64,000 nucleotides of DNA from a virus (IMGVR_UViG_3300032116_000032:72113-136112), one strand, 5' to 3'. Numbered from the stretch's first letter, positions 32,910 to 61,159 are shown. Notes: generated by a model from the letters alone, not told the origin. Program-made: numbers and translations.

Positions 32910-34469
32910 ATGAACACAAGACAATATATTAACTCAAGATTTGAAAAAATTATATCAGAAAACATTAATGAGAAAGCAGATGCTATCTTACAAAGATTGA
33001 ATTATGATGAGGAGGCACCATTCAATCCTGCTGGTAAATCATTTGACTATGTACAAGAAGGTATGAAAGAAACTTGTGAACAATGTGGGTCTGAAATGAA
33101 TGAAGGTGAATGTTCAGAATGTGGTTACCAAAATGAAGAGATTATGGAACTTGGCGGCATGGATGACGGACACCCGAAATATGGAAAGATGAATTTTTCA
33201 AAACTTTCAAGAAAAGAAATTGAAAAAATTATGAAAGATATGGACAATATGGAAGATGACGATGAAGAAGAATTCGTAGATTATGATGATATAGATTATG
33301 GTGATATGGATGATGATGAAGAAGAATATTATCCTGAACTGAGAATACCTCATGACATGCCATCATACAAAACTAAATATAGACATAGTGATGATGAAGA
33401 CGATGAATGGGAAGAAGTAGATTTAGACACAGAAACTGATTGGGATCAATTAGAAGAAGATGAATGTACTGAGTGTGGTGATATGTATGAAATTGAACTT
33501 GATGAAAAATTATATGGAAACCAAACAAAACTTGACAAAAACAAAAACGGTAGAATAGATAGAGAGGATTTCAAAATGTTAAGAAAACAACAAGATGAGG
33601 AAGAAACTCTTTACGAAGTTGAATTTGAAAAAGATGAGTTTAAAGAAGAAAGTAAACCTGACTTTTTAGATTTAGACAAAGATGGTAATAAAAAAGAATC
33701 TATGAAGTCTGCAGCTAAAAGTAAAAAAATGAAAGGAAAGGTTACTGAGTCTTTAATTTTTACTGAAAATGAGTTGATTTCACTTATTGAAAAAACAGTA
33801 AATGAAGAAAAAAAATTCAAAATGAGCGAGCCTAAAGGTTATCAAGAGTACGAAAAAGCACACAGAAAAGATAAGAAAGAAAATGAAGATTATTTAAAGA
33901 TGGTTGCTAAAAAAATGACTGATTACTTGAAAGGTATGTCTGACAAAGAGTCTAAATACGAAATGAAAGAAACACAAAAATTCCCAACTGAAAATGGTGG
34001 TAAAAGAAAAAAATATACTCCATCTGAAGCTGTTGATGAATACATTGATGCATTCTCTTATCCTGGACAAACTAATTTAGTTTATGATGAGATCAAACCT
34101 AATGATGAAAGAATTGAAAAATATCTGAAAGGTGACAGTACTACAGGAAATGCACAAGTTGATAAAGACGGAAAGGCTTTAGGTAATGTTGTACCAAGTG
34201 AAGTTGGTGAGAAATTCTTCAAAAACTATAAAGATAATCTTTATGGTCAAGAACAACAACAGGCTTCTTATAAGAGACAAACCCAACCTGTTGATCAGGC
34301 TGGTGAGGTAACTGAAAGAGGTTCTTTAAAATCTAAGAAAGGTAAAAAAACCGCACAAAGTGTTTTGAATAAAGTTGAGGAATCTGTTAATCAAAAAGAA
34401 AAACAAAAATTAACAGAAGAATTCCAAAGAATTCAAAATCTAATGGGCTATAACCAAAAGACTCAATAA
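32910..34469 (+). CDS. acidic/charged protein with CxxC pairs and EF-hand-like loops (putative internal head protein)
   Basis: CEQC/CSEC/CTEC; DKNKNGRIDREDF is a canonical EF-hand loop; DLDKDGN; many [LIV]xE sites. Confidence 0.6.
   Translation: MNTRQYINSRFEKIISENINEKADAILQRLNYDEEAPFNPAGKSFDYVQEGMKETCEQCGSEMNEGECSECGYQNEEIMELGGMDDGHPKYGKMNFSKLSRKEIEKIMKDMDNMEDDDEEEFVDYDDIDYGDMDDDEEEYYPELRIPHDMPSYKTKYRHSDDEDDEWEEVDLDTETDWDQLEEDECTECGDMYEIELDEKLYGNQTKLDKNKNGRIDREDFKMLRKQQDEEETLYEVEFEKDEFKEESKPDFLDLDKDGNKKESMKSAAKSKKMKGKVTESLIFTENELISLIEKTVNEEKKFKMSEPKGYQEYEKAHRKDKKENEDYLKMVAKKMTDYLKGMSDKESKYEMKETQKFPTENGGKRKKYTPSEAVDEYIDAFSYPGQTNLVYDEIKPNDERIEKYLKGDSTTGNAQVDKDGKALGNVVPSEVGEKFFKNYKDNLYGQEQQQASYKRQTQPVDQAGEVTERGSLKSKKGKKTAQSVLNKVEESVNQKEKQKLTEEFQRIQNLMGYNQKTQ
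33257..33397 (+). repeat. 141-bp direct repeat, copy 1
   Basis: Identical to 44131-44283 except for a 12-bp insertion in copy 2. Confidence 0.92.
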
Positions 34470-34516
34470 TTTACATTACTTAGTCTTATCCTATAATTTT
34501 TTCATAGTTTTTTACT

Positions 34517-34984
34517 ATGGATAATTTTCTAAATTACATTACAAAAAATCTTGACCCTGAAGAGGTGGACATCTGGTTCAGGGTCAATAATATAATTCCT
34601 GAAAAAATGGAATTGTATTATGACCTGTCTTATAGTCTATTCTTGTTAATCAAAAATACATATCTTGGAGATGAATCTGATAATGGTGAAACCACAGTAA
34701 AGATGAATGACACCGACAACAAAAAACACTTCAACTGGTGTTGGAAAAAAATCATAGATAACTTTGAAAGAGAAAGTATTTCATTTGACATGGAAGGAGA
34801 TCACTACGAGTATTTTTTTACACTATTCAATGAGATATATTACAGACAAAGCAAAGAAGCAATTAGAAATTCAATAGATGTATTTTTCAATGATCTTTTC
34901 AATAGAGAAAAGGCATTCACACAAGTCGATCTTGATTTAATCTTTAATATATACAAAACACTAGATAAAAATCTTAAGGTTTAA
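34517..34984 (+). CDS. hypothetical protein
   Basis: 155-aa ORF. Confidence 0.6.
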   Translation: MDNFLNYITKNLDPEEVDIWFRVNNIIPEKMELYYDLSYSLFLLIKNTYLGDESDNGETTVKMNDTDNKKHFNWCWKKIIDNFERESISFDMEGDHYEYFFTLFNEIYYRQSKEAIRNSIDVFFNDLFNREKAFTQVDLDLIFNIYKTLDKNLKV

Positions 34985-35047
34985 ACTTTACAATAGTTTA
35001 TTTAGAACCTAATTTATGTGTAATAAACAATAATTTTTTAATTTCAA

Positions 35048-35218
35048 ATGGAAACTTTAGAAAAAATTAAAGAGCTTACTGAGCAACTAAGTGTTGACGT
35101 TAACAAATTCTTTAGCGGAAACAAAAGTGCTGGTACAAGAGCTAGAAAAACCTCACAAGATTTAAAGGCACTTTTACAACAATTAAGAGGTGAAATTTTA
35201 GAGGAGAAAAAAAAGTAA
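35048..35218 (+). CDS. histone H1-like protein Hc1 family (not in ORF track)
   Basis: METLEKIKELTEQLSVDVNKFFSGNKSAGTRARKTSQDLKALLQQLRGEILEEKKK carries the GNK.AGTRARK hallmark. Confidence 0.8.
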   Translation: METLEKIKELTEQLSVDVNKFFSGNKSAGTRARKTSQDLKALLQQLRGEILEEKKK

Positions 35219-35219
35219 T

Positions 35220-35414
35220 ATGAGGGAATTGGATATTTTGTGTCTTTTTATTTTTGTATTATCAATAATATTTGTTACTAATCAAATATTTAAGATTTCT
35301 GCTGAAATATTAAGTGAAAATCCTCAGAAGATAATTTATCGAGGATTTGAAAAAATATCCAATTACTTCTTTGTATCCTACTTAATAACTTATATTTTAA
35401 TCAAATTTTTTTAA
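35220..35414 (+). CDS. small membrane protein
   Basis: Two hydrophobic segments in 64 aa. Confidence 0.55.
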   Translation: MRELDILCLFIFVLSIIFVTNQIFKISAEILSENPQKIIYRGFEKISNYFFVSYLITYILIKFF

Positions 35415-35418
35415 AAAA

Positions 35419-35847
35419 ATGTATAACGAATTAAAAGACATATTTCAATTTTTAGTGTCAGTTAGAAAATTGAAAACATACTTGACAATAGATATTGAAT
35501 TTCCTGCTAATTGGAAAATACCTAAAAAATATGTGATAGAAGATAAGATTGTTGAGAACGAAAAATTAAATGATAATTTTAGATTTTTTTCATTTGTTAC
35601 TGAATTTAACGAAGTAGAAATGAACCAAACAGTTTCTAATATAAAGAAAATAATTTCTTACAATAAAGAAATCGAAATGAAAGAGAAATTGTTGAAACAA
35701 AAAATAGACGAATTAAAACGAATTTTTGAAAAAGAAAACTTAGACAATTTACAGTCATTAAAATTTGATATTTTAGAAGAAAAATTAGATGATGGAGAAG
35801 AAATCGTTGACACGAGAGGAACAAATGGTGGATTGGTTGAACAGTGA
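35419..35847 (+). CDS. hypothetical protein
   Basis: 142-aa ORF with C-terminal coiled coil. Confidence 0.6.
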   Translation: MYNELKDIFQFLVSVRKLKTYLTIDIEFPANWKIPKKYVIEDKIVENEKLNDNFRFFSFVTEFNEVEMNQTVSNIKKIISYNKEIEMKEKLLKQKIDELKRIFEKENLDNLQSLKFDILEEKLDDGEEIVDTRGTNGGLVEQ

Positions 35848-35992
35848 AATTGAAAAAGATAAAATCGAATTAGATAAAGAAAAAAAAGATCTAATAAATT
35901 CATTAAAATCAATAAAAAAAGAAGAAGTTTTACCAAAACAAGAAAAACTTAGTTTATGGAAGAAAATAAAGAAAGTGTTATTGGGGTCTTAG
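35789..35992 (+). CDS. hypothetical protein
   Basis: 67-aa Lys/Glu-rich ORF overlapping both neighbours. Confidence 0.5.
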   Translation: MMEKKSLTREEQMVDWLNSEIEKDKIELDKEKKDLINSLKSIKKEEVLPKQEKLSLWKKIKKVLLGS

Positions 35993-36917: not shown

Positions 36918-37835
36918 ATGAATAATGAAAATTTTTACCAAGTTTTGGGGGTCCAAGAAAATGCGACTCAAGATGAAATAAAGAAGGCATACCGTAATTT
37001 GGCGAAAGAGAATCACCCTGATACAGGTGGTGATGAAGATAAGTTTAAAAAGATTTCGGTTGCTTACGATGTTTTAAGTGATGAATCTAAAAGAAGAGAA
37101 TACGATACCAAAAGAAAAAATCCATTTGGTAATTATGATAACTATGAAGATATGTTCTCTAATATGTTTGGTGGTAGAAAACCAAGACAAACCGTACACA
37201 CTACAAACATTACAGTGAATGTTGGTGTTTTAGATTCATATAGGGCAAATAAACATTCTCTTTCATATAGAAGACAAACAATGTGCGAACCATGTTCAGG
37301 CACTGGCGGCGATAAAAAAACTTGTGGGACTTGTAACGGTTCAGGTGTTGTAGTTAGACAAGTTGGATCAGGATTTTTTGTTCAAGTAGTACAGATGGCT
37401 TGTGATGGATGTGGAGGAATTGGAAGTATAACCATTAACCCATGTTTTATGTGTAGTGGAAGTGGATCAAAACCTGAAATAAAAAACTTGGACATATCTC
37501 TACCTCATGGAATAGATAATGGTCAGTTTTTAAGATTACAAGGAATGGGAGATTTTAAAAATGGAAACTATGGAGATCTTGTTGTTAGAGTTGATTTGAA
37601 ACCACAGGATGGATTTGATAAGGTGGGTAATCATTTGGTATATAATGTTTTTATGACACTTGATGAACTTAAACAAGGAAGTTTTAATGTCCCACATCCC
37701 GATGGTATGATGAATGTTAAGATGCCCAAAAAAGTTGATACATCACTACCATTGAGAGTCAAAGCAAAAGGATTTAGATTAGATACTGTTGGTGATTTGA
37801 TGATCAACCAATATGTGAGATTTGATAGGGATTAA
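36918..37835 (+). CDS. dnaJ: DnaJ/Hsp40 co-chaperone
   Basis: J-domain with HPD (ENHPDTGG), four CxxCxGxG repeats and a C-terminal GDLVVRV...PHPDG domain. Confidence 0.9.
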
Positions 37836-38000: not shown

Positions 38001-38507
38001 TTATAACACAATGGTTTTAATATGAAAATAGTTTTCCAACATTACTTTCTTTTGTTGGGGTTTGTTTTTGTTGAAGAATCTAAGATAATTACCATCAAAT
38101 GAATAAGTACTTGTTGGAATGACATAAACCCTGTCAGTAGACTTTTCAATTATAAATTCTAAATAATCAAAAACTTCTTCATCTTCATTGTCCTCATCTC
38201 TATAAACAAACTTTAACCTATCACCCAATGAATGATCAGCAAATGATCTAATAATTTTTGGATATTTTAATTCTATAACTTGTGATAAAATGTCGTTAGG
38301 GACCGCAACTCTTTCGTGTGTTGAAGTATCAGAGTCAATAGAATCTAAAATTGATTGTCTTATGAAATCAAAATCTTTATTACCCTTTCTATCTATTGAT
38401 TGATGACTTGAAGCATAGAATGAATTACCTCTTGGACTGATATATAATAAATCTTCCCTGTCGGCTTGCTCGGCAATAATTGATCTTAGAGTTTGAAGCA
38501 TTTTCAT
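38001..38507 (-). CDS. hypothetical protein with IAE leader (start revised from 38714)
   Basis: MKMLQTLRSIIAEQ start has ATATTTAT 6 nt upstream and avoids overlap with the methyltransferase. Confidence 0.6.
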   Translation of the reverse strand: MKMLQTLRSIIAEQADREDLLYISPRGNSFYASSHQSIDRKGNKDFDFIRQSILDSIDSDTSTHERVAVPNDILSQVIELKYPKIIRSFADHSLGDRLKFVYRDEDNEDEEVFDYLEFIIEKSTDRVYVIPTSTYSFDGNYLRFFNKNKPQQKKVMLENYFHIKTIVL

Positions 38508-38575: not shown

Positions 38576-39415
38576 ATGTTAAGTTATATCGGAGGTAAGA
38601 GTAAAATTGGTAAATGGATTGTTCCATTCTACGACAAAAACATGGAGGTCTATTTAGAGACTTTCGGAGGAATGTTTTGGTGTTTCTATAATATGGATCT
38701 AAAACAATTCCCAAATCTAAATAAAGTTGTTTATAACGACTTTAACCCACTAAATTATAATCTATTCAAATGCGTCCAAAACCCAAACGAGTTGTTAAGG
38801 GCGATAAATTCAATTGATTGTCAAAAACAAGGCGTGGATCTTACACCTGAAATATACAAACAACAATTTATCAGCTTTCAGGCTGAAGTTTTTAATGAAG
38901 GTTTCAGCGTAGAACCTGGCGATTATGAAGTTGCCGCTAAGTATGTCTATATTCTAACACAAGTTTTTAGTGGATCAAAACCTGAGACATCTAACTTCAT
39001 TGACCTTAAAGGGAAATACAAATCAAAATATCTTACATTTAGAGATAAGTTATCTAAACCTGATTGGTTGGATCACTTTTTAAAAATTACTGATGTTGAA
39101 AACATGGATTTCGCAGATGTAATCAATAAGTATGACTCACCATCAACTTACATTTATTTGGACCCACCGTATTGGAAAACGGAAAATTACTACTCCAACC
39201 ACGACTTTGATCGTCAAGATCATGAACGTTTGGCTAATGTTTTACACGGGGTTCAAGGTAAGTTTTCTTTATCTTACTATGACTTTGAATTACTTCACGA
39301 ATGGTTTCCCGAAGACCAATACACTTGGGTTAAAAAAGAGTTTGCTAAAGCTGCGGCTGCTAAGAAAGGTGAGAAACAAAATATGGGGGAAGAATTATTG
39401 ATAATGAATTATTAA
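38576..39415 (+). CDS. DNA adenine methyltransferase (Dam/D12-class), orphan
   Basis: SYIGGKSK, YLETFGG, VYNDFN and IYLDPPY motifs. Confidence 0.9.
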   Translation: MLSYIGGKSKIGKWIVPFYDKNMEVYLETFGGMFWCFYNMDLKQFPNLNKVVYNDFNPLNYNLFKCVQNPNELLRAINSIDCQKQGVDLTPEIYKQQFISFQAEVFNEGFSVEPGDYEVAAKYVYILTQVFSGSKPETSNFIDLKGKYKSKYLTFRDKLSKPDWLDHFLKITDVENMDFADVINKYDSPSTYIYLDPPYWKTENYYSNHDFDRQDHERLANVLHGVQGKFSLSYYDFELLHEWFPEDQYTWVKKEFAKAAAAKKGEKQNMGEELLIMNY

Positions 39416-39432: not shown

Positions 39433-39440
39433 ATATTTAT
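39433..39440 (+). promoter_or_regulatory. ATATTTAT upstream motif (putative late promoter)
   Basis: Exact motif 15 nt before the 39456 start. Confidence 0.5.
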
Positions 39441-39455: not shown

Positions 39456-40838
39456 ATGTCACTTAGGTTCACCAATCTATTAAGAGATCTTATTGTTGAA
39501 AGTTCAAGATTTCAAGTATTATTCGATAAGTTCGTAAAACCAAAAGAAAGAGGTCAAAGAGGTATTATGCCTTTTGAAACTTTATTTGCACTTATCGCCG
39601 CTGACCCAACTACAAAGGTCCCTGACGGTATGGATATCGATAATGTTAAACCTGAACAGATGGAGAAGGTTAAAATTGGGAAATACGCTCAATGGTTACT
39701 AAAAAACTTTGTCACTCCTAAATTACCTGCTGATCACCCTTTAATGGTTTCAGATCCACAATCAGGTCAATATAAAGCGGCTTTAAAGGCATTCCAAGAT
39801 CTTTTTATGGAAGACTTATATAAGGTTACAACAAACCTCCAAAAGTTTGAAAGATTTAAAAATAGATTACCTCAAGAGTATAGAGATATTAACAAACTAA
39901 CTCCTGAGACTTTATTTGATCAAGTTAAAGATTTCAGTTTAGAAAAAACCAAAGCGACTGCCGCTGAGAAAAAAGAAGCATCAACAACATATGCTCACCC
40001 TGGTGCTGACATCGTTTATAGAGGTCAAGATTGGACAGTTGCTAAAATATCAGACAAAGGTCCATTAGGTAAAGAAGCCGCATGTTTCTATGGTGGATCT
40101 CATAATGAAGGTAGAAGAGGAGAAACTACTTGGTGTACATCTTCACCTGGACTTTCTTGGTTTGATCGTTATATTGGTAAAGGACCATTGTATGTTGTAA
40201 TTCCAAACAAACCAACATCATTTAAATCTTACGGTAAAGAAGTTGGAGATGTTTCAGGTTTACCGGCAAACAGATACCAATTCCACTTCCCTGATAATCA
40301 GTATATGGATGCGGATGACAGACCAATCAATTTGATTGAATTCTTAAACACAAATGAAGAAGGACTAAAACAATTCTTCAAACCTGAGTTCATGAAGTCA
40401 TTAGCCGGAGATAAAGGTGAAAAAGTTGTGATTGATTATCCAGGTGATTCGGCATCAAAATTCATTGCACTTTATGGTTTTGACGAATTCTTTGCCACTC
40501 TTCCTCAGTCATTGAAAAGACTTACATTCAAAAACACATCAAGAGACAAAATTTCATTGAATATTCCAAACGACATTGGAAGGTTCAAACAGTTGAACGC
40601 AATCAACTTTGTTGGATGTGTTGCAACTATACCTGAAGCAATTTGTCAATTACAAAATTTACAATATTTATCTTTAGTTAATAACCCAGACCTTCAAAAA
40701 TTACCTGAATGTGTTGGGGATATGCAAAACCTTATGGTACTAAACCTTGGAGGATCCGATCCTAAGAAAGTTCTACCTGAATCTGTATTCAGAAGAGCTG
40801 AAACAGACGAAGACTTCAACTTATTTACACACTCTTAA
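39456..40838 (+). CDS. protein with LIVE leader, central WCT-motif domain and C-terminal leucine-rich repeats
   Basis: IPNDIGRFKQLNAINF, IPEAICQLQNLQYLSL and LPECVGDMQNLMVLNL fit LPxxIxxLxxLxxLxL LRRs. Confidence 0.7.
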   Translation: MSLRFTNLLRDLIVESSRFQVLFDKFVKPKERGQRGIMPFETLFALIAADPTTKVPDGMDIDNVKPEQMEKVKIGKYAQWLLKNFVTPKLPADHPLMVSDPQSGQYKAALKAFQDLFMEDLYKVTTNLQKFERFKNRLPQEYRDINKLTPETLFDQVKDFSLEKTKATAAEKKEASTTYAHPGADIVYRGQDWTVAKISDKGPLGKEAACFYGGSHNEGRRGETTWCTSSPGLSWFDRYIGKGPLYVVIPNKPTSFKSYGKEVGDVSGLPANRYQFHFPDNQYMDADDRPINLIEFLNTNEEGLKQFFKPEFMKSLAGDKGEKVVIDYPGDSASKFIALYGFDEFFATLPQSLKRLTFKNTSRDKISLNIPNDIGRFKQLNAINFVGCVATIPEAICQLQNLQYLSLVNNPDLQKLPECVGDMQNLMVLNLGGSDPKKVLPESVFRRAETDEDFNLFTHS

Positions 40839-40840: not shown

Positions 40841-41530
40841 ATGAATAGAAGATTAATAATTAATGAAGAAGAAAAAAGAAGAATTTTAAATCTTCATGAA
40901 AGTAGAAGATCTAAAGAATTAGGTTTTTTATTTGAAGACGATAATGCAAACAATGAAGTACTGCTTCAAGGTACGGATAAGGATTATGATTATAAAAAAG
41001 TGGGAGATAAATATTATTTCAAGTTAAAGGATAACCCTACAAGTGTCGCGGCTAAAGGATACAAAACACAAGGAAAATTTGTAGATTGGACAGAAGCGAC
41101 TAATCAAAAAGCTATAGATAAAATTTCACAACTACCTACATTATCAACAGTAGCACAATTTCAGGGACCTGGTGAAGTTGACGGAAGTGATGAGACATTT
41201 GACGCACCACAAACCGCATCTACAACGGCGCAAACACCTACAGTGGCGTCAACAACATCTACAACCGCAGCAACACCCACAAACGCAACTACAACTACAA
41301 ACGCAACAACACCAGCACCTACGTCAAAAAACCCTGATGTTTTAGCAGACTTAAAAACTGCATCACAAATCAGACAAGAATTTAGACAAGGTAATAGAGA
41401 TAAAAACAAAGCGATGAGACAATACAATCAAATGGTTAATAAATATAACAAATTAAAAAGTAAAATGAGTCCACAAGATAATTCGGCTTATCTACAAGCA
41501 ATTGGCCAATTGAAACAACAAATAGGATAA
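40841..41530 (+). CDS. leader-bearing protein with Thr/Ala-rich linker
   Basis: MNRRLIINEEEKRRILNLH leader; TASTTAQTPTVASTTSTT linker. Confidence 0.6.
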   Translation: MNRRLIINEEEKRRILNLHESRRSKELGFLFEDDNANNEVLLQGTDKDYDYKKVGDKYYFKLKDNPTSVAAKGYKTQGKFVDWTEATNQKAIDKISQLPTLSTVAQFQGPGEVDGSDETFDAPQTASTTAQTPTVASTTSTTAATPTNATTTTNATTPAPTSKNPDVLADLKTASQIRQEFRQGNRDKNKAMRQYNQMVNKYNKLKSKMSPQDNSAYLQAIGQLKQQIG

Positions 41531-41550: not shown

Positions 41551-41584
41551 AAAACCCCCCCTTCTTTTGATCGGGGGTTTTTTA
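41551..41584 (+). terminator. intrinsic terminator
   Basis: AAAACCCCC...GGGGGTTTT followed by T-tract. Confidence 0.7.
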
Positions 41585-41606
41585 TTTAACAAAGTATTTA
41601 TCTTAT

Positions 41607-41981
41607 ATGAAAATCATCATAACAGAAGAACAGTATAATCTAATCAACGAAACCTATAGAAGAGATCGTTTTGATGCTGAGTACGCTGATGAATATCCAA
41701 AGTATAAGAAGTTGTTTTTAAAGACAATATCTAAAGATGTCAAAGGTTGGGGTGAATGGCCAGGATCAATTTATCTGATGACTGAAAACGGAGACCCTTT
41801 ATTTGTATATAGAATACCATCAAAAACCGTATATTATGATTATTCAATAGATAAAGAGATGGAAGAATATATTCCTTATCACATTGTTTCGAGACACTTG
41901 AAAAACGCAGTTTACGATTACTTCAAAGGACTTTTTCCTGATGTTGAAATAAAAGAGGTAAGTGGGGCTAATATTGTATAG
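41607..41981 (+). CDS. MKIIITE-leader protein 1
   Basis: MKIIITEEQYNLINE; GTATTTAT upstream. Confidence 0.65.
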   Translation: MKIIITEEQYNLINETYRRDRFDAEYADEYPKYKKLFLKTISKDVKGWGEWPGSIYLMTENGDPLFVYRIPSKTVYYDYSIDKEMEEYIPYHIVSRHLKNAVYDYFKGLFPDVEIKEVSGANIV

Positions 41982-41983
41982 TT

Positions 41984-42541
41984 ATGAAAATAATAATATC
42001 TAATAATCAATATAGTCTTTTGAAGGAAGTGCATGTTGCTATTAAAAACATTGAGGGTCTTAAAAAGTATTGGAGAAACCAACAAAAAAAAGGTCAACAA
42101 ATTAGATTTAATAAAGAAGATTTAGATTTTTGGGGTATTACAACTAGACAGGAAAAATATTATGCTCAAACAGCATTTCAAGAATTAGTTGGAGATGAGG
42201 TTTTTACTGAAAAAGTTATTAAAAAGTTAATCGGAAAAACATTTTCAACGAAAGACTTTGATGATAGAATCACTGGTGGATATGATTTCGAGTGGGTGAT
42301 TGATAATATGGAATATAGAGATTATGATTTTTATTTATATGGAAAAACATTACCGGGAGGAACTGTTACTCTTATGGATGGTAGACACATATCTTTAAGT
42401 GAAGGAATAAATCATGAAGATTTAGGTTGGGAAATACAAGAAGAAATTAAAGATGTTGTCCAAGACTGTATGGATGAAATAATTTTACCTGTCACAGGAT
42501 ATGAAGTGATAGTACCATATTTAATTATATCTGAAGAATGA
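41984..42541 (+). CDS. MKIIITE-leader protein 2
   Basis: MKIIISNNQYSLLKE. Confidence 0.65.
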   Translation: MKIIISNNQYSLLKEVHVAIKNIEGLKKYWRNQQKKGQQIRFNKEDLDFWGITTRQEKYYAQTAFQELVGDEVFTEKVIKKLIGKTFSTKDFDDRITGGYDFEWVIDNMEYRDYDFYLYGKTLPGGTVTLMDGRHISLSEGINHEDLGWEIQEEIKDVVQDCMDEIILPVTGYEVIVPYLIISEE

Positions 42542-42864
42542 AAATAATAATTACAGAATCACAGAAAGAAAAACTAATGAATGATTTTATGAAATCACTC
42601 GTAGATGATACCTTAGATGAAAACAAACCTTCTTATGTTGATTATTATATTGTTATTTGGGATAAAACTGCTGTTTGGAACATTGATAACGAGCCGTTTA
42701 TTGAATATGATAAATCTGATGGTAGATTGTGGATATCAAAAAAATATTTAAACAACTTAGAATCTTGGTTCCCAATCAAAAAAGAAAAAGTGTTAGATAT
42801 GATTAAAAACTCTTTTGAAAATAAATTTAATGTTGATGTAAAATATATCAAAGCGGAGTCATGA
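42538..42864 (+). CDS. MKIIITE-leader protein 3
   Basis: MKIIITESQKEKL. Confidence 0.65.
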   Translation: MKIIITESQKEKLMNDFMKSLVDDTLDENKPSYVDYYIVIWDKTAVWNIDNEPFIEYDKSDGRLWISKKYLNNLESWFPIKKEKVLDMIKNSFENKFNVDVKYIKAES

Positions 42865-43448
42865 AAATAATAATTACAGAAAAACAATATAATAAGTTAA
42901 CTGAAGATAAACTTCAGAAACTTTGTTATACAGTATGGAACCAACAAAAAAAGAGAGGTGAAGAACCTTATATTGATGATATAATATACGACATTACAGA
43001 TATTAGAAAAAACACAAATGAAGACTTTCAAATCATTAGACCCATTTGGTATAGATACAACGGTGGATTTAATAACTTATTTGAAAAACTTAAAAATGAA
43101 ATTGACGAAAAAATATTTGACCTTACAAGTGATTGGGGTAATCTTGATACAAGAGTAGAAGTTATTGAAGTAAGTCAGTTTGGTAGATTAGGTGAAGATT
43201 TTGGAGTAGATATATTTGTAAATGTAGATCCAAATGGAACCATGGATTTCCAAATGTATGAAGAAGGAACCGATAACGAAATTCAAGTTAACGATACGAT
43301 TGAGGCGGCTTATTTTGAAGCTCAATCCAATTATGAAGGAAGTGATCTTCTTGGTTATTTAAGAGGGGAAGTTTATGACCTTTTTTATAAAAAGTTAGAA
43401 AAATACGGAATTCCAATTGACGTGGATGTTGATCTAAAAGAATTTTAA
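42861..43448 (+). CDS. MKIIITE-leader protein 4
   Basis: MKIIITEKQYNKLTE. Confidence 0.65.
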   Translation: MKIIITEKQYNKLTEDKLQKLCYTVWNQQKKRGEEPYIDDIIYDITDIRKNTNEDFQIIRPIWYRYNGGFNNLFEKLKNEIDEKIFDLTSDWGNLDTRVEVIEVSQFGRLGEDFGVDIFVNVDPNGTMDFQMYEEGTDNEIQVNDTIEAAYFEAQSNYEGSDLLGYLRGEVYDLFYKKLEKYGIPIDVDVDLKEF

Positions 43449-44041: not shown

Positions 44042-44500
44042 ATGAAAAAACAAATACTTGAAGAGCTTAATGATATTAAGTATCTTTTTAATTACAATAG
44101 AGGTAAAATTATTTCAGAACAGGAACAATTTGACGATGAAGAAGAATTCGTAGATTATGATGATATAGATTATGGTGATATGGATGATGATATGGATGAT
44201 GATGAAGAAGAATATTATCCTGAACTGAGAATACCTCATGACATGCCATCATACAAAACTAAATATAGACATAGTGATGATGATATGGAATTGGACGAAG
44301 AAATGGATCTTCCTGTAATGTTACCAGGTACAAAAGAAAAAGAAAGAACTAAGGTAACACCTGGAACTAAACCGAGAACAAAACCTAATACTCCATATAG
44401 CCCAAAACCAGGACCAAAACCGGATCCTAAGGCTAGAAATAGAAAAGATGAGATGCCTGATTGGTTAACCTTTGATGAACTTGGAATTGATTTTGAATAA
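44042..44500 (+). CDS. leader-bearing acidic/Pro-rich protein carrying the duplicated segment
   Basis: MKKQILEE...IISEQ leader; acidic block shared with 32910-34469; TPGTKPRTKPNTPYSPKPGPKP. Confidence 0.6.
   Translation: MKKQILEELNDIKYLFNYNRGKIISEQEQFDDEEEFVDYDDIDYGDMDDDMDDDEEEYYPELRIPHDMPSYKTKYRHSDDDMELDEEMDLPVMLPGTKEKERTKVTPGTKPRTKPNTPYSPKPGPKPDPKARNRKDEMPDWLTFDELGIDFE
44131..44283 (+). repeat. 141-bp direct repeat, copy 2 (+12-bp insertion)
   Basis: Matches 33257-33397 with an extra TATGGATGATGA unit. Confidence 0.92.
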
Positions 44501-50183: not shown

Positions 50184-50191
50184 ATATTTAT
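50184..50191 (+). promoter_or_regulatory. ATATTTAT upstream motif (putative late promoter)
   Basis: Exact motif 5 nt before the 50197 ATG. Confidence 0.5.
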
Positions 50192-50196
50192 CAAGT

Positions 50197-51402
50197 ATGA
50201 GAGACTTCATTAAAAATTTCTTATTAGAACAAGATGAGAATCTTGTTACACTAACTCCTGATCAATATATCGAAACATTAGAAGATGTTGGTGGAATTGC
50301 GGCGAGAGTTTCAAATCTAAAACCTTATCGTGGTAAAGGTATTGTTATTAACGGTGATTTAGATCTTAGAAAATTTAAAACTGTTGGACCACTTACAGGA
50401 ATTGTGAGAGTAATGGGTAGGTTAGATATATCCAATACGAATGTTCCAAATCTTGATGGTGTTACCGTAGATAGATATGTTAGTAATTGGGGATCAACAA
50501 TGCATACAATTAAATTAAAACAAGAAAGAAATAAAAAACTTTCAGAATTGGCCGATTATAGAGAAAATGATGAGTGGAATACAGAAAACAAAGACGATGA
50601 TTCTGAAAGAACTGAAGCTTTATATGAATTTTTGGTTGAAGAAGGTATACCTACTTTATATGAAGACGACAATGGTGAAGAAGTAGAAGAAGACAAATAT
50701 TTTATTTATCCTAATAGCACTGGAACTTACGGTATTGGAAAACAATACGAATGGTTAGGTAGTGATACTTTACAACCTGATACATATGATGTTTATACTC
50801 AAGATGAGTTAGATATTGCCGCTAGAAGATATGTTGAAAATGCTATTGATGACATGGGTTATGAGGCATTTACAAGTTGGGTTTGGGATCAAGCACTTGA
50901 TAGAGGACAGTGGGAAAGTTGGTTAGAAGATTTTTATGAAGATATAATTAGAGATGATCCTGAAAACTATGATATAGGACTTGAATTATCTACAAATCAA
51001 CAACATCAAGTTAATCAATTAAAAAAAACTATAGAAAATCTAAATAATAAATTAAAAAGTGAGGAATTGTCTGACGAAGAATACGAAAACATCGAAAGAA
51101 AAATTGAAGGTTTAGAAGAGACGATAGAAGAAATTATAGAAGATCCACAAGGTGGTTATGATGAAAGTTCCATACAGAATGAAATCAATGATAGAGTTAA
51201 TGAATATGTTGATGATATTGATGATTTTATTAAACACTACGGATATGAAAAAAGTTTTATAATGGATTTTGTTGATTTAGATGAGGTTACGGATATTGTC
51301 GTAAATAGTGATGGATATGGTAATCTATTAAACTCTTATGATGGAGAAATGTTTGAAACACAGGTAAACGGTGACTGGTATTTTGTAATGAGGGCTAGTT
51401 AG
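50197..51402 (+). CDS. very acidic leader-bearing protein with short beta-solenoid-like segment (start revised from 50179)
   Basis: MRDFIKNFLLEQ leader; INGDLDLR...VMGRLDISNTNVPNL; D/E-rich body. Confidence 0.6.
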   Translation: MRDFIKNFLLEQDENLVTLTPDQYIETLEDVGGIAARVSNLKPYRGKGIVINGDLDLRKFKTVGPLTGIVRVMGRLDISNTNVPNLDGVTVDRYVSNWGSTMHTIKLKQERNKKLSELADYRENDEWNTENKDDDSERTEALYEFLVEEGIPTLYEDDNGEEVEEDKYFIYPNSTGTYGIGKQYEWLGSDTLQPDTYDVYTQDELDIAARRYVENAIDDMGYEAFTSWVWDQALDRGQWESWLEDFYEDIIRDDPENYDIGLELSTNQQHQVNQLKKTIENLNNKLKSEELSDEEYENIERKIEGLEETIEEIIEDPQGGYDESSIQNEINDRVNEYVDDIDDFIKHYGYEKSFIMDFVDLDEVTDIVVNSDGYGNLLNSYDGEMFETQVNGDWYFVMRAS

Positions 51403-54795: not shown

Positions 54796-55647
54796 ATGAT
54801 AGAAACAGGAAAAATTATTAACGGAGATTGTATTGAGGTAATGAAAACTTTACCTGAAGGATCTGTGGATCTGATAGTTACATCTCCACCTTATGGGGTT
54901 GGTATTGACTATGATGTTCATGAAGATGACACGGAGTTCAACGAGTATGTTGAGTTTGCAAAGTCTTGGTTATCTGAGGCTTATCGACTATTAAAAGATG
55001 ATGGAAGAATAGCTCTGAACATTCCTTACGAAATTAATCGTCAGAAAAAAGGTGGTCGTATTTTCTTTGTGTCAGAGATGTGGCAGATTATGAAAGAAAT
55101 CGGTTTTGGTTTCTTTGGTATTGTGGATTTAGAAGAACAATCACCACATAGAAGTAAAACTACCGCTTGGGGATCTTGGATGAGCCCAAGTTCACCGTAC
55201 ATTTATAACCCAAAAGAATGTGTAATTTTGGCATACAAAAACAAACACATTAAAAAAATCAAAGGTCAACCACAATGGACTGGAGAATTAACTGAAATTG
55301 AAAATGAAGATGGTTCGAAAAGAAATAAAATGGTCTATGATGAGAATGATAAAAAAGAATTTATGGAACTTGTGTTTGGTCAGTGGAATTACTTTGCAGA
55401 TACTAAATCACTCACCAAGGCAACTTTCTCGATGGACATACCAACTAAAGCGATCAAGATATTATCCTACAAGAACGATGTAGTTTTAGATCCGTTTGCA
55501 GGATCAGGAACTAGTTTAGTGGCGGCTGAGATATTAAACAGAAGATGGTTGGGAATAGAATTATCACCAAATTATTGTGATGTTGCTCGAGGAAGAGTCC
55601 AAGCTTTTGTTGATGAAAAAACAAAAGTAAAAATTGAAAGTGAGTGA
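54796..55647 (+). CDS. DNA N4-cytosine/N6-adenine methyltransferase (beta class), orphan
   Basis: IINGDC, LIVTSPPY and VVLDPFAGSGT motifs in beta order. Confidence 0.9.
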   Translation: MIETGKIINGDCIEVMKTLPEGSVDLIVTSPPYGVGIDYDVHEDDTEFNEYVEFAKSWLSEAYRLLKDDGRIALNIPYEINRQKKGGRIFFVSEMWQIMKEIGFGFFGIVDLEEQSPHRSKTTAWGSWMSPSSPYIYNPKECVILAYKNKHIKKIKGQPQWTGELTEIENEDGSKRNKMVYDENDKKEFMELVFGQWNYFADTKSLTKATFSMDIPTKAIKILSYKNDVVLDPFAGSGTSLVAAEILNRRWLGIELSPNYCDVARGRVQAFVDEKTKVKIESE

Positions 55648-55654
55648 TATTTAT
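55647..55654 (+). promoter_or_regulatory. ATATTTAT upstream motif (putative late promoter)
   Basis: Exact motif 5 nt before the 55660 start. Confidence 0.5.
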
Positions 55655-55659
55655 ATGAT

Positions 55660-55848
55660 ATGAAAAACTATTTAATCAACGAGAAACAACTTAAGAGAAT
55701 TCTTGAACAAGTTGAGGATGAAGAAAACAAATCAGAAGATGATCAAACTAATGACGAAACTGTAAGTAGTGGTTTTTTTGACGACATCGTAAAAAAACCT
55801 TTGGACTCTAGTGATCCTTTGAAAATGTTTTTTGATTCCCTAAATTAA
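55660..55848 (+). CDS. small leader-bearing acidic protein
   Basis: MKNYLINEKQLKRILEQ. Confidence 0.55.
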   Translation: MKNYLINEKQLKRILEQVEDEENKSEDDQTNDETVSSGFFDDIVKKPLDSSDPLKMFFDSLN

Positions 55849-57371: not shown

Positions 57372-57432
57372 TTTCCTTGTTTTATAAAAATAAGGTGGTG
57401 GAGAAGCTGGCATTCAATGTCGGCCCTGAAAT

Positions 57433-57460: not shown

Positions 57461-57469
57461 ATTTTTCAT

Positions 57470-57477
57470 ATATTTAT
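57470..57477 (+). promoter_or_regulatory. ATATTTAT upstream motif (putative late promoter)
   Basis: Exact motif 17 nt before the 57495 ATG. Confidence 0.5.
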
Positions 57478-57494
57478 ATAATAAAAAATTCGAT

Positions 57495-58493
57495 ATGAAA
57501 AATAAATTTATTTTAACAGAAGAAGAATCTAAAAGAATTCTTTCTTTACACAAACAAAAAATTCAAGAAGAAAGAAATCAATTTAATGAACAAGAAGAAG
57601 ATCTTGATGAGGGGGATAAAGGACAATCGACTGGTAGAGTTGCCGCAGGTGGTGGTATTGGTGCAACAGCAGGTGCAATTATAGGATGTATTGCTGCCGC
57701 AATCCCAACAGGGGGATTAGCTTGTGCTGGTGGTGCCGCGTTAGGTGCGTCAATTGGTACTGCTGTAGGTGGTTTTGGTGGATGGCTTACAACTGGGGGT
57801 GGTTACTACGATAAAGTATTAAACGCACTAAAATGGTGTAATGCACATCGTGGAAAAATTGGTACCCCTGTAAATAGTGATAGTGTAATTAGGGATATTG
57901 CTGATGACATTGCTGGTGCGGTTGAAGGATTTGCTAGAACTGATGAAACTATGATAGCCAGATCTTTAAGAAAATTAAAAAGTATTCCTGATTTATGTCG
58001 TTTAAATGACATTTACAGAAAAAGAAACACAGAGAGTTTATTAAATGCTATTGATGGTGACATCGATCAAGATGGTGAATGGCGTGATTATGTTTGGAGA
58101 CCAATAGAAGAACTTTTTGAATATAGTAAGAAAAAATCTAATGAAGCATTGAAAGAAAATGCCAAAAAATGTGGTTGGGGTTCTGACTTAGATGGGTATA
58201 AAAATTCAGGATGGCAGTGTCCTAAAGGGGGAAAAAAACCAAACCCAACCCCTAACCCAAACCCAACCCCTAACCCAACCCCTAACCCAATACCAAACCC
58301 AAGAAGAAAAAGATACTACTTCAATTATCAAGATGCGGTAAACGCATTGAATAGAAAAGGATGTCCTACTGGTGCTGGTGGTGAAGAGGGTAAAAAAGAT
58401 GATGGATTTGCCGATGATTGGAGAGTACCGCAACCTGATCAAAAAGTTGATCCTATAGTTTCATCTGACGATTTTTCAAATTGGTCTAAATAA
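57495..58493 (+). CDS. leader-bearing glycine-zipper protein with (PN/PT)n linker (start revised from 57438)
   Basis: MKNKFILTEEESKRILSLH leader; GGGIGATAGAIIGCIAAAIPTGGLACAGGAALGASIGTAVGG; PNPTPNPNPTPNP. Confidence 0.65.
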   Translation: MKNKFILTEEESKRILSLHKQKIQEERNQFNEQEEDLDEGDKGQSTGRVAAGGGIGATAGAIIGCIAAAIPTGGLACAGGAALGASIGTAVGGFGGWLTTGGGYYDKVLNALKWCNAHRGKIGTPVNSDSVIRDIADDIAGAVEGFARTDETMIARSLRKLKSIPDLCRLNDIYRKRNTESLLNAIDGDIDQDGEWRDYVWRPIEELFEYSKKKSNEALKENAKKCGWGSDLDGYKNSGWQCPKGGKKPNPTPNPNPTPNPTPNPIPNPRRKRYYFNYQDAVNALNRKGCPTGAGGEEGKKDDGFADDWRVPQPDQKVDPIVSSDDFSNWSK

Positions 58494-58509
58494 AAAAAAA
58501 CAAATAATT

Positions 58510-58734
58510 ATGAGCAAGATTAAATTAACAGAAAGTCAATACAACAAATTAAAAAATAATATTGTTGAATCCGCATTAATTACTGAGGCATCTAATACGA
58601 GAGAAGAAGTAATAACAATACAAAAAGCATTAAACAAATGTTTTAAAGCTGGTTTAGCTGAAGATGGAATTTGTGGAAAAAATACAAAATCCGCAATTGA
58701 AAGATATATAGGTATTCCGGTGTTTGAAGTTTAA
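58510..58734 (+). CDS. leader + peptidoglycan-binding (PG_binding_1-like) protein
   Basis: MSKIKLTESQYNKL leader; EVITIQKALN.....LAEDGICGKNTKSAI. Confidence 0.65.
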   Translation: MSKIKLTESQYNKLKNNIVESALITEASNTREEVITIQKALNKCFKAGLAEDGICGKNTKSAIERYIGIPVFEV

Positions 58735-58756
58735 GTTTAAAATTCTTAAATTATAC

Positions 58757-58782
58757 AAAAGGGAGTTTAACTCCCTTTTTTT
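58757..58782 (+). terminator. intrinsic terminator
   Basis: GGGAGT-TTA-ACTCCC flanked by A4 and T7. Confidence 0.75.
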
Positions 58783-58809
58783 ATGCAATTTTTTTCATAT
58801 CTTTACACT

Positions 58810-59229
58810 ATGGAAAAAGTATTATATATCGTTAGAGGAATACCGGGTAGTGGTAAATCAACATTTGCAAAAAGATTGGTAGGTGAAGATTTTTTAGTTT
58901 GTGAAGCGGACAAATACTTTATTAATCAAGAAAATGGTAAATACGAATTTGATATTTCTAAAATAAAAGATGCACATAAATGGTGTCAAAATATAGTAGA
59001 AAATTACATGAGAGATAGTATGATTAACGATCAGTATTATCCTGAAATTGCGGTATCAAATACCTTTACTCAAGAATGGGAGATGGAGCCTTACCTTGAG
59101 TTAGCGAAAACCTATGGATATAAAGTATTTTCAATTGTAGTTGAAAACAGACACGGGGGAATAAATCAACATGGAGTTCCTGAAGACAAATTAGAACAAA
59201 TGAAAAACCGTTTTGAAATAAAATTATGA
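58810..59229 (+). CDS. P-loop kinase (AAA_33, polynucleotide-kinase-like; start revised from 58783)
   Basis: YIVRGIPGSGKST, CEADKYF, VSNTF and HGVPED motifs. Confidence 0.8.
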   Translation: MEKVLYIVRGIPGSGKSTFAKRLVGEDFLVCEADKYFINQENGKYEFDISKIKDAHKWCQNIVENYMRDSMINDQYYPEIAVSNTFTQEWEMEPYLELAKTYGYKVFSIVVENRHGGINQHGVPEDKLEQMKNRFEIKL

Positions 59230-59882
59230 CAAAATTTGATAAATTACTAACATCTGGTATTGTTTGGATTACATCTGACACGCACTACCACCATAAAAAT
59301 ATCTGTCGAGGTGTTACCAATTGGAGAACACAAGATGGTAAAATTCCTATTGACCAAACAAGGAATTTTAAAGATTTGGATGAGATGGATTCGGTTATTA
59401 TTAACAATATCAATCAAAAAGTTGGACCAAATGATACTTTAATTCATTTAGGTGATGTTGCTTTTGGTGGATTTGAAAAAATAGGTGAGTTTTTAGATCG
59501 TCTTGTTTGTAAAAATGTCCATCTTGTTTTAGGTAATCACGATCAACACATAACAAAGAATAGAGAAAATATAAGAGACAGGTTTTTATCTGTTTCTAAC
59601 TATTTGGAAGTAAGTATAGATGATGTTAATTTTGTTTTATGTCACTATCCATATGCTAGTTGGAATAAGTTGGGTAAAGGATCAATTCATCTTCACGGAC
59701 ACATTCATTTCTCGGCTAAAGATAAATGGGGTAAAGGAAAACGATTGGATGTTGGTATGGATGGTAATGGATATTTTCCATATAAAATTACTGAGATAGT
59801 TCATATGATGGACCGTCGTCAGATTAGATCTGAAATGGATTTGGATCACCACCTTGATGATTTAGTTGGAGTTGTGGGATAA
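59226..59882 (+). CDS. calcineurin-like metallophosphoesterase
   Basis: ITSDTHYHH, IHLGDV, VLGNHD, LCHYP and HLHGHIH motifs. Confidence 0.88.
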   Translation: MTKFDKLLTSGIVWITSDTHYHHKNICRGVTNWRTQDGKIPIDQTRNFKDLDEMDSVIINNINQKVGPNDTLIHLGDVAFGGFEKIGEFLDRLVCKNVHLVLGNHDQHITKNRENIRDRFLSVSNYLEVSIDDVNFVLCHYPYASWNKLGKGSIHLHGHIHFSAKDKWGKGKRLDVGMDGNGYFPYKITEIVHMMDRRQIRSEMDLDHHLDDLVGVVG

Positions 59883-59896
59883 ACCATGACTCCAAT

Positions 59897-59904
59897 ATAT
59901 TTAT
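59897..59904 (+). promoter_or_regulatory. ATATTTAT upstream motif (putative late promoter)
   Basis: Exact motif 4 nt before the 59909 start. Confidence 0.5.
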
Positions 59905-59908
59905 TATT

Positions 59909-61159
59909 ATGAGAAGTATTATTATCACTGAAAACCAATTTAGATTTATAACTGAAGCTTTGGGGGTTCCTGATAACATTTTGGATGCTGCTAATATGTT
60001 ATATGATATTGTTGAAAAAGACATCAAATCAATAAATAGTATCGAAGATGAATATGAATTTGATGGTGATATCGAATTTGAATTAGGTGGTAAACATAAG
60101 GTAATGATTGACTCATATGAATTAAAAGTTAATATAGAAACTATTGATGGAGAAGAAGGTGTCTTAGACATTATCTCAATGGGAATGGCGGGAGGTTTTG
60201 GATTTAATAGAGATGTCTATATGAAAGAAACTGAACCATCAACAACTTTAGAATTAACAATAACATTTGCTGTTGGTGAAAATTGGGAACCTGAAGGGTT
60301 AATTAGAAAAATGGAGGAAGAAAGGGACGAACACGTCGCATCATTGGCTCATGAGATTAAACACAAATACGACAAACAATCAAAAAAGTTTGGTTTAATT
60401 GGTCCTGATGCTACTTACCAAGCAACGCAAAGAAGAGGTCATTTTGGAATACCTGCGATTGATAGAGTTTTCTTCAGGTTTATGTATTATATCCACGGTA
60501 TTGAAAACCTTGTAAGACCTGTTGAGGTTGCATCTTCAATGAAATCAAAAAATATTACAAAATCAAAGTTCTTAGATTTTTTACAAACCAATAGAGTGTT
60601 CAAAGAATTAGTCGAAATTAAGAATTTCACATTTGAAGATTTCATTAACCAATTAAAAGAAAATGAGGATAGATTAGATGCTCTTCTAAACCACATAGGA
60701 GAAGACCCATCTAATATGAATATTGACCAAAAGATTGACAGAGTGTTGGAAGTTGCTTATATTGATTTAGTGAATAACAGAATGGAAATGTTTGTTCGAA
60801 TGACGGAACATCATATGGATGATATGATAAAATTCGGATCACAACTTGGACTTTTACCATCAAATTTAAAAGATAAGGTTAAACAGTTAGAAAAAACAGA
60901 CGAGATTAGACGAAAGTTTTTATCTCAAACTATGAAATATGAAAAAAACCCAACCAAATTTTTTAAAGATGAAATTGAAAACTTCCAATACGTTGCAAAT
61001 AAAATGTTAAAGAAGATATCAAAACTATACGCCATGGCAAAAGACGACGAACAAGTAAGTGAATCAATTCTAAATTGGGATCTTCACCAACAAATTATGG
61101 AAAAAAAGTATGGTAAAAGAAAAATCGAAACAAAATACAAAAATTGGAATTTTAAATAA
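59909..61159 (+). CDS. leader-bearing protein with HEXXH motif (putative zincin)
   Basis: MRSIIITENQFRFITEA leader; SLAHEIKHKYD. Confidence 0.55.
   Translation: MRSIIITENQFRFITEALGVPDNILDAANMLYDIVEKDIKSINSIEDEYEFDGDIEFELGGKHKVMIDSYELKVNIETIDGEEGVLDIISMGMAGGFGFNRDVYMKETEPSTTLELTITFAVGENWEPEGLIRKMEEERDEHVASLAHEIKHKYDKQSKKFGLIGPDATYQATQRRGHFGIPAIDRVFFRFMYYIHGIENLVRPVEVASSMKSKNITKSKFLDFLQTNRVFKELVEIKNFTFEDFINQLKENEDRLDALLNHIGEDPSNMNIDQKIDRVLEVAYIDLVNNRMEMFVRMTEHHMDDMIKFGSQLGLLPSNLKDKVKQLEKTDEIRRKFLSQTMKYEKNPTKFFKDEIENFQYVANKMLKKISKLYAMAKDDEQVSESILNWDLHQQIMEKKYGKRKIETKYKNWNFK

Follow-up and report, generated by a model that had tools for sequence, protein, structure and literature searches.

A short N-terminal leader on unrelated late proteins of an uncultured T4-like jumbo-phage clade: a candidate analogue of the T4 capsid-targeting sequence

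Introduction

Why would proteins with unrelated bodies begin with the same few residues? The question is raised by a 64,000-nucleotide (nt) stretch of viral DNA (IMGVR_UViG_3300032116_000032:72113-136112; henceforth, the window), which represents bases 72113-136112 of one linear, 136,112-bp IMG/VR virus contig (G000). Between positions 32910 and 61159 of the window, a number of open reading frames (ORFs) start with variants of a leader whose main form is MKIIITExQ. A first-pass annotation had counted at least 13 such ORFs and had read the leader as a modular tag, by which many different proteins could be loaded into the phage head. As described below, the modular nature of the tag is borne out: in a phage clade, the same short peptide is found at the N-terminus of at least 94 unrelated families of protein bodies.

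There is a precedent for such an arrangement. In T-even phages, it is established that unrelated internal proteins may have only a capsid-targeting sequence (CTS) in common (PMC3012670; PMC9026906). The CTS of T4 is 10 residues long (PMC3012670), the T-even internal proteins are hypervariable (PMC3012670; PMC9026906), and the cleavage motif of the prohead protease gp21 is given as L/I-x-E in PMC9026906. Our literature searches returned no description of the present leader motif or of the virion proteome of the clade that carries it.

Results

Nine ORFs of the window carry the leader

When all 13 coordinates of the first-pass annotation were translated, nine proved to be ORFs with a related leader at the first Met (Table 1), while the remaining four (38507, 39456, 44042 and 50197) failed. 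The ORFs at 41607, 41984, 42538, 42861 and 59909 are of the MKIIITExQ type, and those at 57495 and 40841 make up a subtype B, h-I-x-T/N-E-E-E-x-R-I-L-x-L-H. Position 38507 corresponds to a TAC codon followed by a stop, with no ORF start, and the actual gene found there begins at 38576.

A hidden Markov model (HMM) built from the nine N-termini and run unfiltered on the six-frame translation of the whole contig (119,487 residues) scored the nine members at 21.7-28.8 bits and the next best segment at 6.1 bits. Upon leaving out one member at a time, eight of the nine ranked above every non-family segment, and ORF 57495 was marginal (5.5 vs 5.8 bits). An external HMM, with 94 leaders of other contigs as its training set (a few of these contigs being close relatives with near-identical orthologues), retrieved the same nine at 14.4-37.1 bits, the next match being at 5.9. 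Both models returned exactly nine ORFs, and the next match scored lower by at least 8 bits. In an unbiased, all-against-all comparison of N-terminal 14-mers, the leader set was the largest N-terminal cluster of the contig, with 19 high-scoring pairs among N-termini vs 1 among internal windows. The same clustering applied to T4, as a positive control, recovered IPI, IPII and IPIII with their CTS, as well as Alt; the Mob and Seg homing-endonuclease paralogues also grouped by N-terminus.

The third leader type of the first-pass annotation (39456, 44042 and 50197) was rejected, as these ORFs are not significant by HMM and have only a loose hydrophobic-hydrophobic-x-Glu pattern. Genome-wide, and with the strict family removed, this pattern occurs in 14% of N-termini vs 6% of internal windows, a mild enrichment that cannot be validated gene by gene.

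The proteins behind the leader are mostly unrelated

For most pairs among the nine proteins, BLASTP detected no similarity past the first 15-40 residues. Two pairs behaved differently, namely 42538/42861 (56 residues, E 9e-6) and, weakly, 41984/42861; with relatives added, the latter two fell into one body cluster as remote paralogues. The cassette at 41607-43448 probably arose as an A-B-A-B duplication, so that the nine ORFs would amount to about seven body families.

The diversity is much larger in related loci. We removed the first 22 residues from 208 unique leader proteins encoded in these loci and clustered the remainders by BLASTP; these proteins, taken from among the matches listed, gave at least 94 body clusters, with lengths ranging from 29 to 518 residues. 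Subtype B (E-E-E-x-R-I-L-x-L-H) was found on 8 of the clusters. Where Pfam domains could be recognized, they began only past residue ~24-46 (for example, at residue 32 for sigma-70 region 2, 34 for a DHH-like domain and 58 for phage lysozyme). About three-quarters of 96 representative leader proteins had no Pfam family. The domains observed in relatives included several related to the cell wall (PG_binding_1 in three proteins, LysM plus Phage_lysozyme, SLT and Hydrolase_2), in addition to a GDSL lipase, an ECF sigma factor, Pterin_4a, Phage_L5_gp82 and LRR-like repeats. PHROGs matches comprised an 'internal virion protein with endolysin domain', endolysins and an HNH/homing-endonuclease-like protein.

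For the nine window proteins, Pfam and PHROGs gave weak matches only, under the cut-offs. The first-pass annotation was right that the bodies are mostly unrelated and that they include an HEXXH motif, which reads HEIKH in 59909 and is invariant in 22 homologues. Its PG-binding and LRR assignments are weak: PG_binding_1 (PF01471) in 58510 scores 21.4 bits and LRR_14 in 39456 scores 27 bits, both below the curated cut-offs, and 39456 is not a family member. Protein 59909 has 1084 homologues at 90% clustering, all labelled 'hypothetical', and is very common in metagenomes; a search of the ESM Atlas with it returned viral hypothetical clusters only. The body of 57495 includes a hydrophobic segment rich in Gly and Ala, as well as a Pro-Asn-Pro-Thr tract. 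The model of 42861 is a confident alpha/beta structure with a novel fold, for which Foldseek found no match in the PDB (best E 0.01, TM <=0.25).

The leader marks one phage clade

The contig is 46% complete by CheckV, with a GC content of ~31%, and codes for T4-like tail sheath, tube and baseplate hub proteins, as well as for a helicase, an SSB and a UvsX-like recombinase. A clear syntenic relative is G002, a complete IMG/VR genome of 296,330 bp, which is matched by 90 of 137 crude G000 ORFs, mostly at 50-90% identity. The clade to which they belong consists of uncultured, jumbo T4-like phages of ~300 kb and 30% GC. By capsid protein, the nearest cultured relative is Flavobacterium phage vB_FspM_immuto (41% identity), and some uncultured huge-phage records rank similarly or slightly above it. 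The host is probably a member of the Flavobacteriia. Among 50,697 phage records there was no near-identical DNA match to the window region and no tblastn match to 59909.

To follow the leader further, we back-translated M-K-I-I-I-T-E-x-Q to a degenerate DNA pattern and scanned IMG/VR and prokaryote genomes. At least 119 IMG/VR stretches matched, those listed all with a GC content of 25-36%, and several held 3-4 copies of the pattern within a few kb. The prokaryote genomes (596 Gb) gave 15 matches, eight of which were non-coding (10-16 codons); four others lay on short, mis-binned contigs of metagenome-assembled genomes that carry clade homologues, two of them binned with a Flavobacterium. The reversed pattern had 0 matches in five clade genomes, as opposed to 2-11 for the forward one. 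The strict MKIIITE pattern was not found in T4 or in immuto.

We extended the search with the window-derived HMM to relatives, as the first-pass annotation had suggested; at a threshold of >=12 bits there were at least 239 matches in a 1.0-Mb sample of related IMG/VR loci drawn from the matches listed. Of the 239 listed, 231 were at a Met and 212 had no in-frame ATG upstream. Non-leader homologues of G000 or G002 genes were present in 111 of 119 loci among the matches listed (median identity 61%), implying that the leader marks one phage clade; it is restricted to this single clade of T4-like jumbo phages. G002 itself has at least 21 strict leader genes, and up to ~45 in a loose cluster that includes a MKKIIRLTESDLTRIV-type start.

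The set of leader cargo is hypervariable. None of the nine leader genes of G000 has a homologue in G002, as compared to 90 of the 128 other genes (p = 4e-5).

Two sets of G002 proteins deserve mention. The first comprises ~10 full-length, scattered copies of a leader protein of ~149 residues (MKIIITE[SN]QYKLIKEN...KKVGF...), at 166712, 239203-242671, 78977, 283644, 116814 and other positions. A late motif of their own precedes most of them; five copies flank a homologue of the G000 gene at 26687-28882, and another is placed between the portal and protease genes. The protein has no Pfam match and could represent either a paralogous head-internal family or a mobile gene. The second set is an N-terminal family, MKK-I-I-R-L-T-E-S-D-L-T-R-I-V-K-R-V-I-K-E, which occurs on different bodies after the late motif (110251, 110742, 111106, 144682, 246125, 280211 and 284354); it has an L-T-E-S core in common with the main leader, and no copy was seen in G000.

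The leader is conserved over about 15 residues

Alignment of 194 in-register leaders yielded the consensus M-K-I-I-I-T-E-S-Q-Y-k-x-L-x-E, with Y/L/F at position 10 in 72% and L/I at position 13 in 93% of the cases; both positions are outside the search pattern. Conservation fades past residue ~16. Matches found by the HMM only (n = 87, of which 81 could be placed in register) had a Glu after T/S/N in 77 of the 81. In the window, I-T-E, I-N-E or L-T-E is present at the leader core in eight of nine members; 41984 lacks the Glu at position 7, and retains L-K-E at 13-15. An L/I-x-E motif at residues 13-15 occurs in ~38% of leaders.

In AlphaFold2 models, the leader is predicted to lie outside the folded body and to be exposed. 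For 42861 (mean pLDDT 87.9), residues 1-5 were below 50 and a helix started from residue 7; for 59909 (pLDDT 62), residues 1-22 were below 50. On composition, we rejected a signal peptide of the Sec, Tat or lipoprotein kind: the hydrophobic stretch is just three residues long, and T-E-S-Q and an amphipathic helix come next. The true signal peptides of immuto form a separate group upon N-terminal clustering.

Relatives have a T4-type head module

The first-pass annotation had proposed to look for a gp21-like protease elsewhere in the genome. Neither such a protease nor a gp23-type capsid gene was found on the incomplete G000 contig, whereas each of the four leader-bearing genomes that are near-complete (96-100%) has a Peptidase_S77 (the gp21 family) match exceeding the Pfam cut-off. 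G000 corresponds to ~227-296 kb and then 0-50 kb of G002, so its head genes are expected in the missing half. The G002 head proteins include a terminase, a portal protein, Peptidase_S77 (78.9 bits, encoded at 167773-168498), an acidic scaffold-like protein of 508 residues encoded at 168922-170448 and a Gp23-type capsid protein (213.8 bits). Their genes are arranged in the order terminase, portal, two small ORFs (one of which is the leader protein at 166712), a 155-residue ORF, protease, a 71-residue ORF, scaffold-like and gp23-type capsid, mirroring T4 genes 20-67-68-21-22-23.

The capsid protein offers a view of what the clade protease may cut. The known cleavage junction of T4 gp23, E65/A66 (...F-L-T-E65/A66), aligns with an E-A that is invariant between the G002 and immuto capsid proteins. 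In G002 the aligned site reads ...F-L-I-N-E/A, and L-I-N-E/A is kept in the related genomes G001, G003 and G004. The cores of the leader, which read I-I-T-E in the main type, L-I-N-E in 55660 and I-I-N-E in 40841, resemble on this alignment the inferred gp21 maturation site of the capsid protein. The mere occurrence of [LIV]-x-E within ~30 residues of each start, to which the first-pass annotation had drawn attention, is weak evidence if taken alone, since many such sites exist in the proteome. A predicted complex between the G002 protease (5-row alignment) and leader residues 1-40 scored 0.00; the run was without controls and counts neither way.

At their N-terminus, the prohead proteases of the clade read MKILGP...G-I-L-V/I-E, and the Leu-x-Glu formed by residues 14-16 is invariant. 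It brings to mind the L-I-E situated close to the start of T4 gp21, a proposed autocleavage site (PMC9026906). A relative of 268,739 bp, G004, rated '100% complete' in IMG/VR, encodes two gp21-type proteases that differ from each other, along with two gp23-type capsid proteins (78% and 46% identical to that of G002); it could be a chimeric assembly or else a phage in which two head modules coexist.

Leader genes share an upstream motif with head and tail genes

The sequence ATATTTAT or, for 41607, GTATTTAT lies 4-17 nt upstream of 41607, 55660, 57495 and 59909, and, within this range, ATATTTAT also precedes 39456, the first gene of the unit that contains 40841. The other leader genes (41984, 42538, 42861 and 58510) are coupled downstream genes, and all nine sit in units headed by the motif, in agreement with the first-pass annotation, which had noticed it before most leader ORFs or the first gene of their run. 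The motif at 57470 falls inside a GTG-extended ORF (57438), making 57495 the likely start.

On the sense strand, ATATTTAT is found within 40 nt upstream of 21 of 137 G000 genes and 66 of 392 G002 genes, including those for sheath, adaptor, portal, protease and scaffold; its reverse complement is upstream of only 3 of the 137 G000 genes. In G002 the motif precedes 14 of 21 leader genes vs 52 of 371 others (odds ratio 12, p = 2e-7). These distributions suggest that ATATTTAT is a late promoter, and leader genes appear to be co-expressed with head and other structural genes.

The spacing between ATATTTAT and the ATG, in the window and genome-wide in G002, shows a peak at 4-5 nt and a second, broad one at 12-17 nt. 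Examples of close packing in the window are 59897-59911, 55647-55662 and 50184-50199. Late transcripts may be leaderless or nearly so, or ATATTTAT may act also in translation initiation.

Table 1. Leader genes, rejected candidates and transcription signals in the window (scores in bits)
Feature	Position	Strand	Length and remarks	Window HMM	External HMM
ATATTTAT late-type motif	39433..39440	+	heads unit 39456-40838 -> 40841-41530
Non-member, LRR-containing late protein	39456..40838	+	loose L-I-V-E at residues 12-15	not detected	not detected
Leader gene, subtype B (MNRRLIINEEEKRRILNLHES...)	40841..41530	+	229 aa; Thr-rich low-complexity body	21.7	14.6
Terminator-like hairpin + T-run	41560..41577	+	separates two transcription units
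GTATTTAT motif	41594..41601	+	5 nt before ATG 41607; heads four-gene coupled cassette
Leader gene (MKIIITEEQYNLINE...)	41607..41981	+	124 aa	26.8	37.1
Leader gene, degenerate core (MKIIISNNQYSLLKE...)	41984..42541	+	185 aa	24.9	15.0
Leader gene (MKIIITESQKEKL...)	42538..42864	+	108 aa	27.2	26.6
Leader gene (MKIIITEKQYNKLTE...)	42861..43448	+	195 aa	28.8
Non-member, acidic late protein	44042..44500	+		not detected	not detected
Non-member, acidic late protein	50197..51402	+		not detected	not detected
ATATTTAT motif	55647..55654	+	5 nt before ATG 55660
Leader gene, intermediate type (MKNYLINEKQLKRILEQ...)	55660..55848	+	62 aa; acidic body	24.4	14.4
ATATTTAT motif	57470..57477	+	17 nt before ATG 57495
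Leader gene, subtype B (MKNKFILTEEESKRILSLHKQ...)	57495..58493	+	332 aa	22.0	15.0
Leader gene (MSKIKLTESQYNKL...)	58510..58734	+	74 aa; weak PG_binding_1 body	24.2	20.2
ATATTTAT motif	59897..59904	+	4 nt before ATG 59909
Leader gene (MRSIIITENQFRFITE...)	59909..61159	+	416 aa; invariant HEIKH	25.4	16.5

Two features lie outside the leader family. A 153-nt stretch, 92% identical, is shared by window positions 33257-33397 and 44131-44283, within two different late genes 11 kb apart (ORFs 32910-34469 and 44042-44500). The ORFs at 38576-39415 and 54796-55647 look like DNA methyltransferases, as judged by eye from N-terminal motifs.

Discussion

What the leader may do

We favor, with a probability of about 0.55, the view that the ~15-residue leader is a clade-specific analogue of the T4 CTS, cleaved by a gp21-type protease. 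The analogy is well motivated by the T4-type sheath, the T4-type head module of a relative, the resemblance to the capsid site and the shared motif. According to this scheme, leader genes would be transcribed late, along with head and tail genes. The exposed leader would bind the scaffolding core of the assembling prohead, so that the attached protein becomes enclosed. The prohead protease would then cut after Glu7 of I-T-E and/or at the L-x-E of residues 13-15, freeing the cargo inside the head, from which it would exit with the DNA at the next infection. With a tag so short and self-contained, cargo genes could easily be added or swapped, which would explain the hypervariable islands. We infer core binding, cleavage, packaging and injection by analogy with T4, and an 'effector arsenal' from the domain types.

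A broader proposal, which we regard as possible but advance only tentatively, is that the leader labels a plug-in cargo system, with at least a tenth of the genes of a ~300-kb phage being loaded into the head and delivered to the next host. Cell-wall enzymes, lipases, nuclease-like proteins and even a sigma factor would all be part of the load. Such a system would equal a polymorphic injected arsenal, on the scale of polymorphic toxins, with recruitment achieved by ~15 codons.

Several observations weigh against a capsid address. Glu7 is missing from ORF 41984; the protease and capsid genes are not on G000 and their presence is deduced from relatives; [LIV]-x-E is a low-information motif, frequent in an acidic, Ile-rich proteome. 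The leader, MKIIITExQYxxLxE, has no sequence similarity to the T4 CTS, MKTYQEFIAE, so that the resemblance is one of function, not homology. The ECF sigma factor, the HNH/homing-endonuclease-like protein and the pterin dehydratase are unobvious candidates for packaging, and hydrophobic, Gly-rich cargo such as 57495 is not obviously suited to it. The number of tagged genes in G002 (by either the strict or the loose count) far exceeds T4's handful of cargo species. Finally, phage-record searches and capsid-protein comparison found no cultured member of the clade.

Some of these points would fit a different function. The leader might be a generic N-terminal tag for docking or handling, addressed to a target other than the prohead core: another part of the virion, a chaperone system, or a non-capsid protease for which it would signal timed degradation or processing. 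The leader is modular, exposed and selected as a peptide, as any addressing function requires, and there is no need for a sigma factor, nuclease-like proteins or metabolic enzymes to belong to the virion. As to chaperones, K-I-I-I-T presents a hydrophobic core beside a basic residue, as in typical Hsp70-binding segments, and the window encodes a J-domain-like protein at 36918-37835 (YQVLGV...HPD, with the HPD recognized by eye), a DnaJ-like co-chaperone candidate located within the region of interest. However, chaperone binding leaves unexplained the near-invariant T-E-x-Q...L register, and it accounts neither for the resemblance to the capsid maturation site nor for the restriction to a clade with gp21-type proteases; furthermore, no candidate receptor was identified. 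We therefore deem this alternative unlikely, albeit the strongest competitor of a capsid address.

It is far less probable that what is conserved is a start cassette at the nucleic-acid level (an initiation region, a late-promoter-proximal element or a recombination handle), spread by recombination and with the peptide a by-product. The late motif does lie 4-5 nt from the ATG in many genes, with promoter, start and first codons tightly packed; AT-rich first codons favor initiation in Shine-Dalgarno-poor Bacteroidota; and 42538 and 42861 are identical over their first 21 nt. However, the codons at conserved leader residues are used as in the gene bodies: Ser8 is encoded by both families (TCN 69%, AGY 31%) and Leu13 by both TTR and CTN. 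Such background-like synonymous usage implies selection on the peptide rather than on a DNA or RNA element, a candidate that we rejected on these grounds. Moreover, the nine window leaders differ at synonymous sites and in the 30 nt upstream, protein-level conservation reaches residues 13-15, and coupled internal genes without a motif of their own retain the peptide.

Least credible of all is that the leader proteins are diverged paralogues of one ancestral gene recognizable only at the N-terminus since, despite the remote paralogy of 41984/42861 (and probably also of 41607/42538) in the cassette, the ~10 full-length copies of one 149-residue leader protein in G002 and the similar N-terminal clustering of T4 Mob and Seg endonucleases, the similarity is N-terminal only, the body clusters are too many and too different in length and Pfam content for a full-length paralogue family (which we rejected), and established domains that are found leaderless elsewhere (lysozyme + LysM, SLT, Hydrolase_2, ECF sigma, GDSL lipase, Pterin_4a, LRR) start after the leader.

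Comparison with known systems

Returning to the capsid address, the parallels with T4 are several. Like the CTS of IPI, IPII, IPIII and the Alt propeptide, the leader is a short N-terminal peptide on unrelated, fast-evolving proteins, it ends in hydrophobic-x-Glu, and it is recovered by the same N-terminal clustering. Both T4 and the clade have a T4-type head module with a gp21-family protease (known, for the clade, from relatives), and in both the tagged genes would be expressed with head genes, as the shared motif suggests for the clade. The differences are also clear. The leader is longer than the CTS and has two candidate cut sites. Against ~4-8 cargo proteins in T4, there are 9 in the half-genome of G000 and at least 21 in a complete relative, and the 1-Mb sample yields at least 94 body families; unlike that of T4, the cargo includes enzymes and a sigma factor, and the host is probably a flavobacterium in the broad sense (Flavobacteriia). 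In contrast to the T4 system, packaging and cleavage in the clade are predicted from the sequence.

The phages phiKZ, 201phi2-1 and SPN3US are, like the members of the clade, jumbo phages. These three phages cut after a small residue-x-Glu (S/A/G-x-E), and the propeptides of their head and ejection proteins are long and are not known to share a short leader. The clade differs from them in having Ile or Leu at P3 and a head module that is T4-type by Pfam matches above the cut-offs. According to PMC9026906, phiKZ, 201phi2-1 and SPN3US have many head-internal proteins, including families of internal-protein paralogues, and N-terminal propeptides that are removed after Glu by diverged gp21 homologues.

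Phage immuto also has a T4-type head module, with an annotated prohead core protease. On different proteins it carries two N-terminal families, MKKSQLRQIIKEAL-like (6) and MENFDLKKFLVENKLT-like (4), which contain hydrophobic-x-Glu and differ from the clade leader in sequence and in their small size. We consider them candidate CTS-like tags in a culturable phage. Family members occur at 102294, 102880, 113188 and 123355, and at 1803, 103806, 117631 and 118632; one member is a 73-residue ORF between the portal and protease genes.

Relative to T-even phages, what is new here is a different leader, in a different and uncultured clade of jumbo phages, with a cargo repertoire larger by 1-2 orders of magnitude.

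Biological significance

Even if the leader served another purpose, a 15-residue peptide placed on at least 94 unrelated proteins would be a sorting signal new to the literature searched. If it is a capsid address, an abundant clade shows how far the principle of the T4 internal proteins scales: each virion would carry dozens of interchangeable, pre-made proteins, encoded in hypervariable islands and presumably directed against host defenses or envelopes. Injected proteins of metagenomic phages could then be predicted by a simple rule at the sequence level, and the packaging of foreign proteins into phage heads would gain a second, independent short tag. The ~75% of cargo families that are function-unknown proteins would then be worth testing for roles in anti-defense or host takeover.

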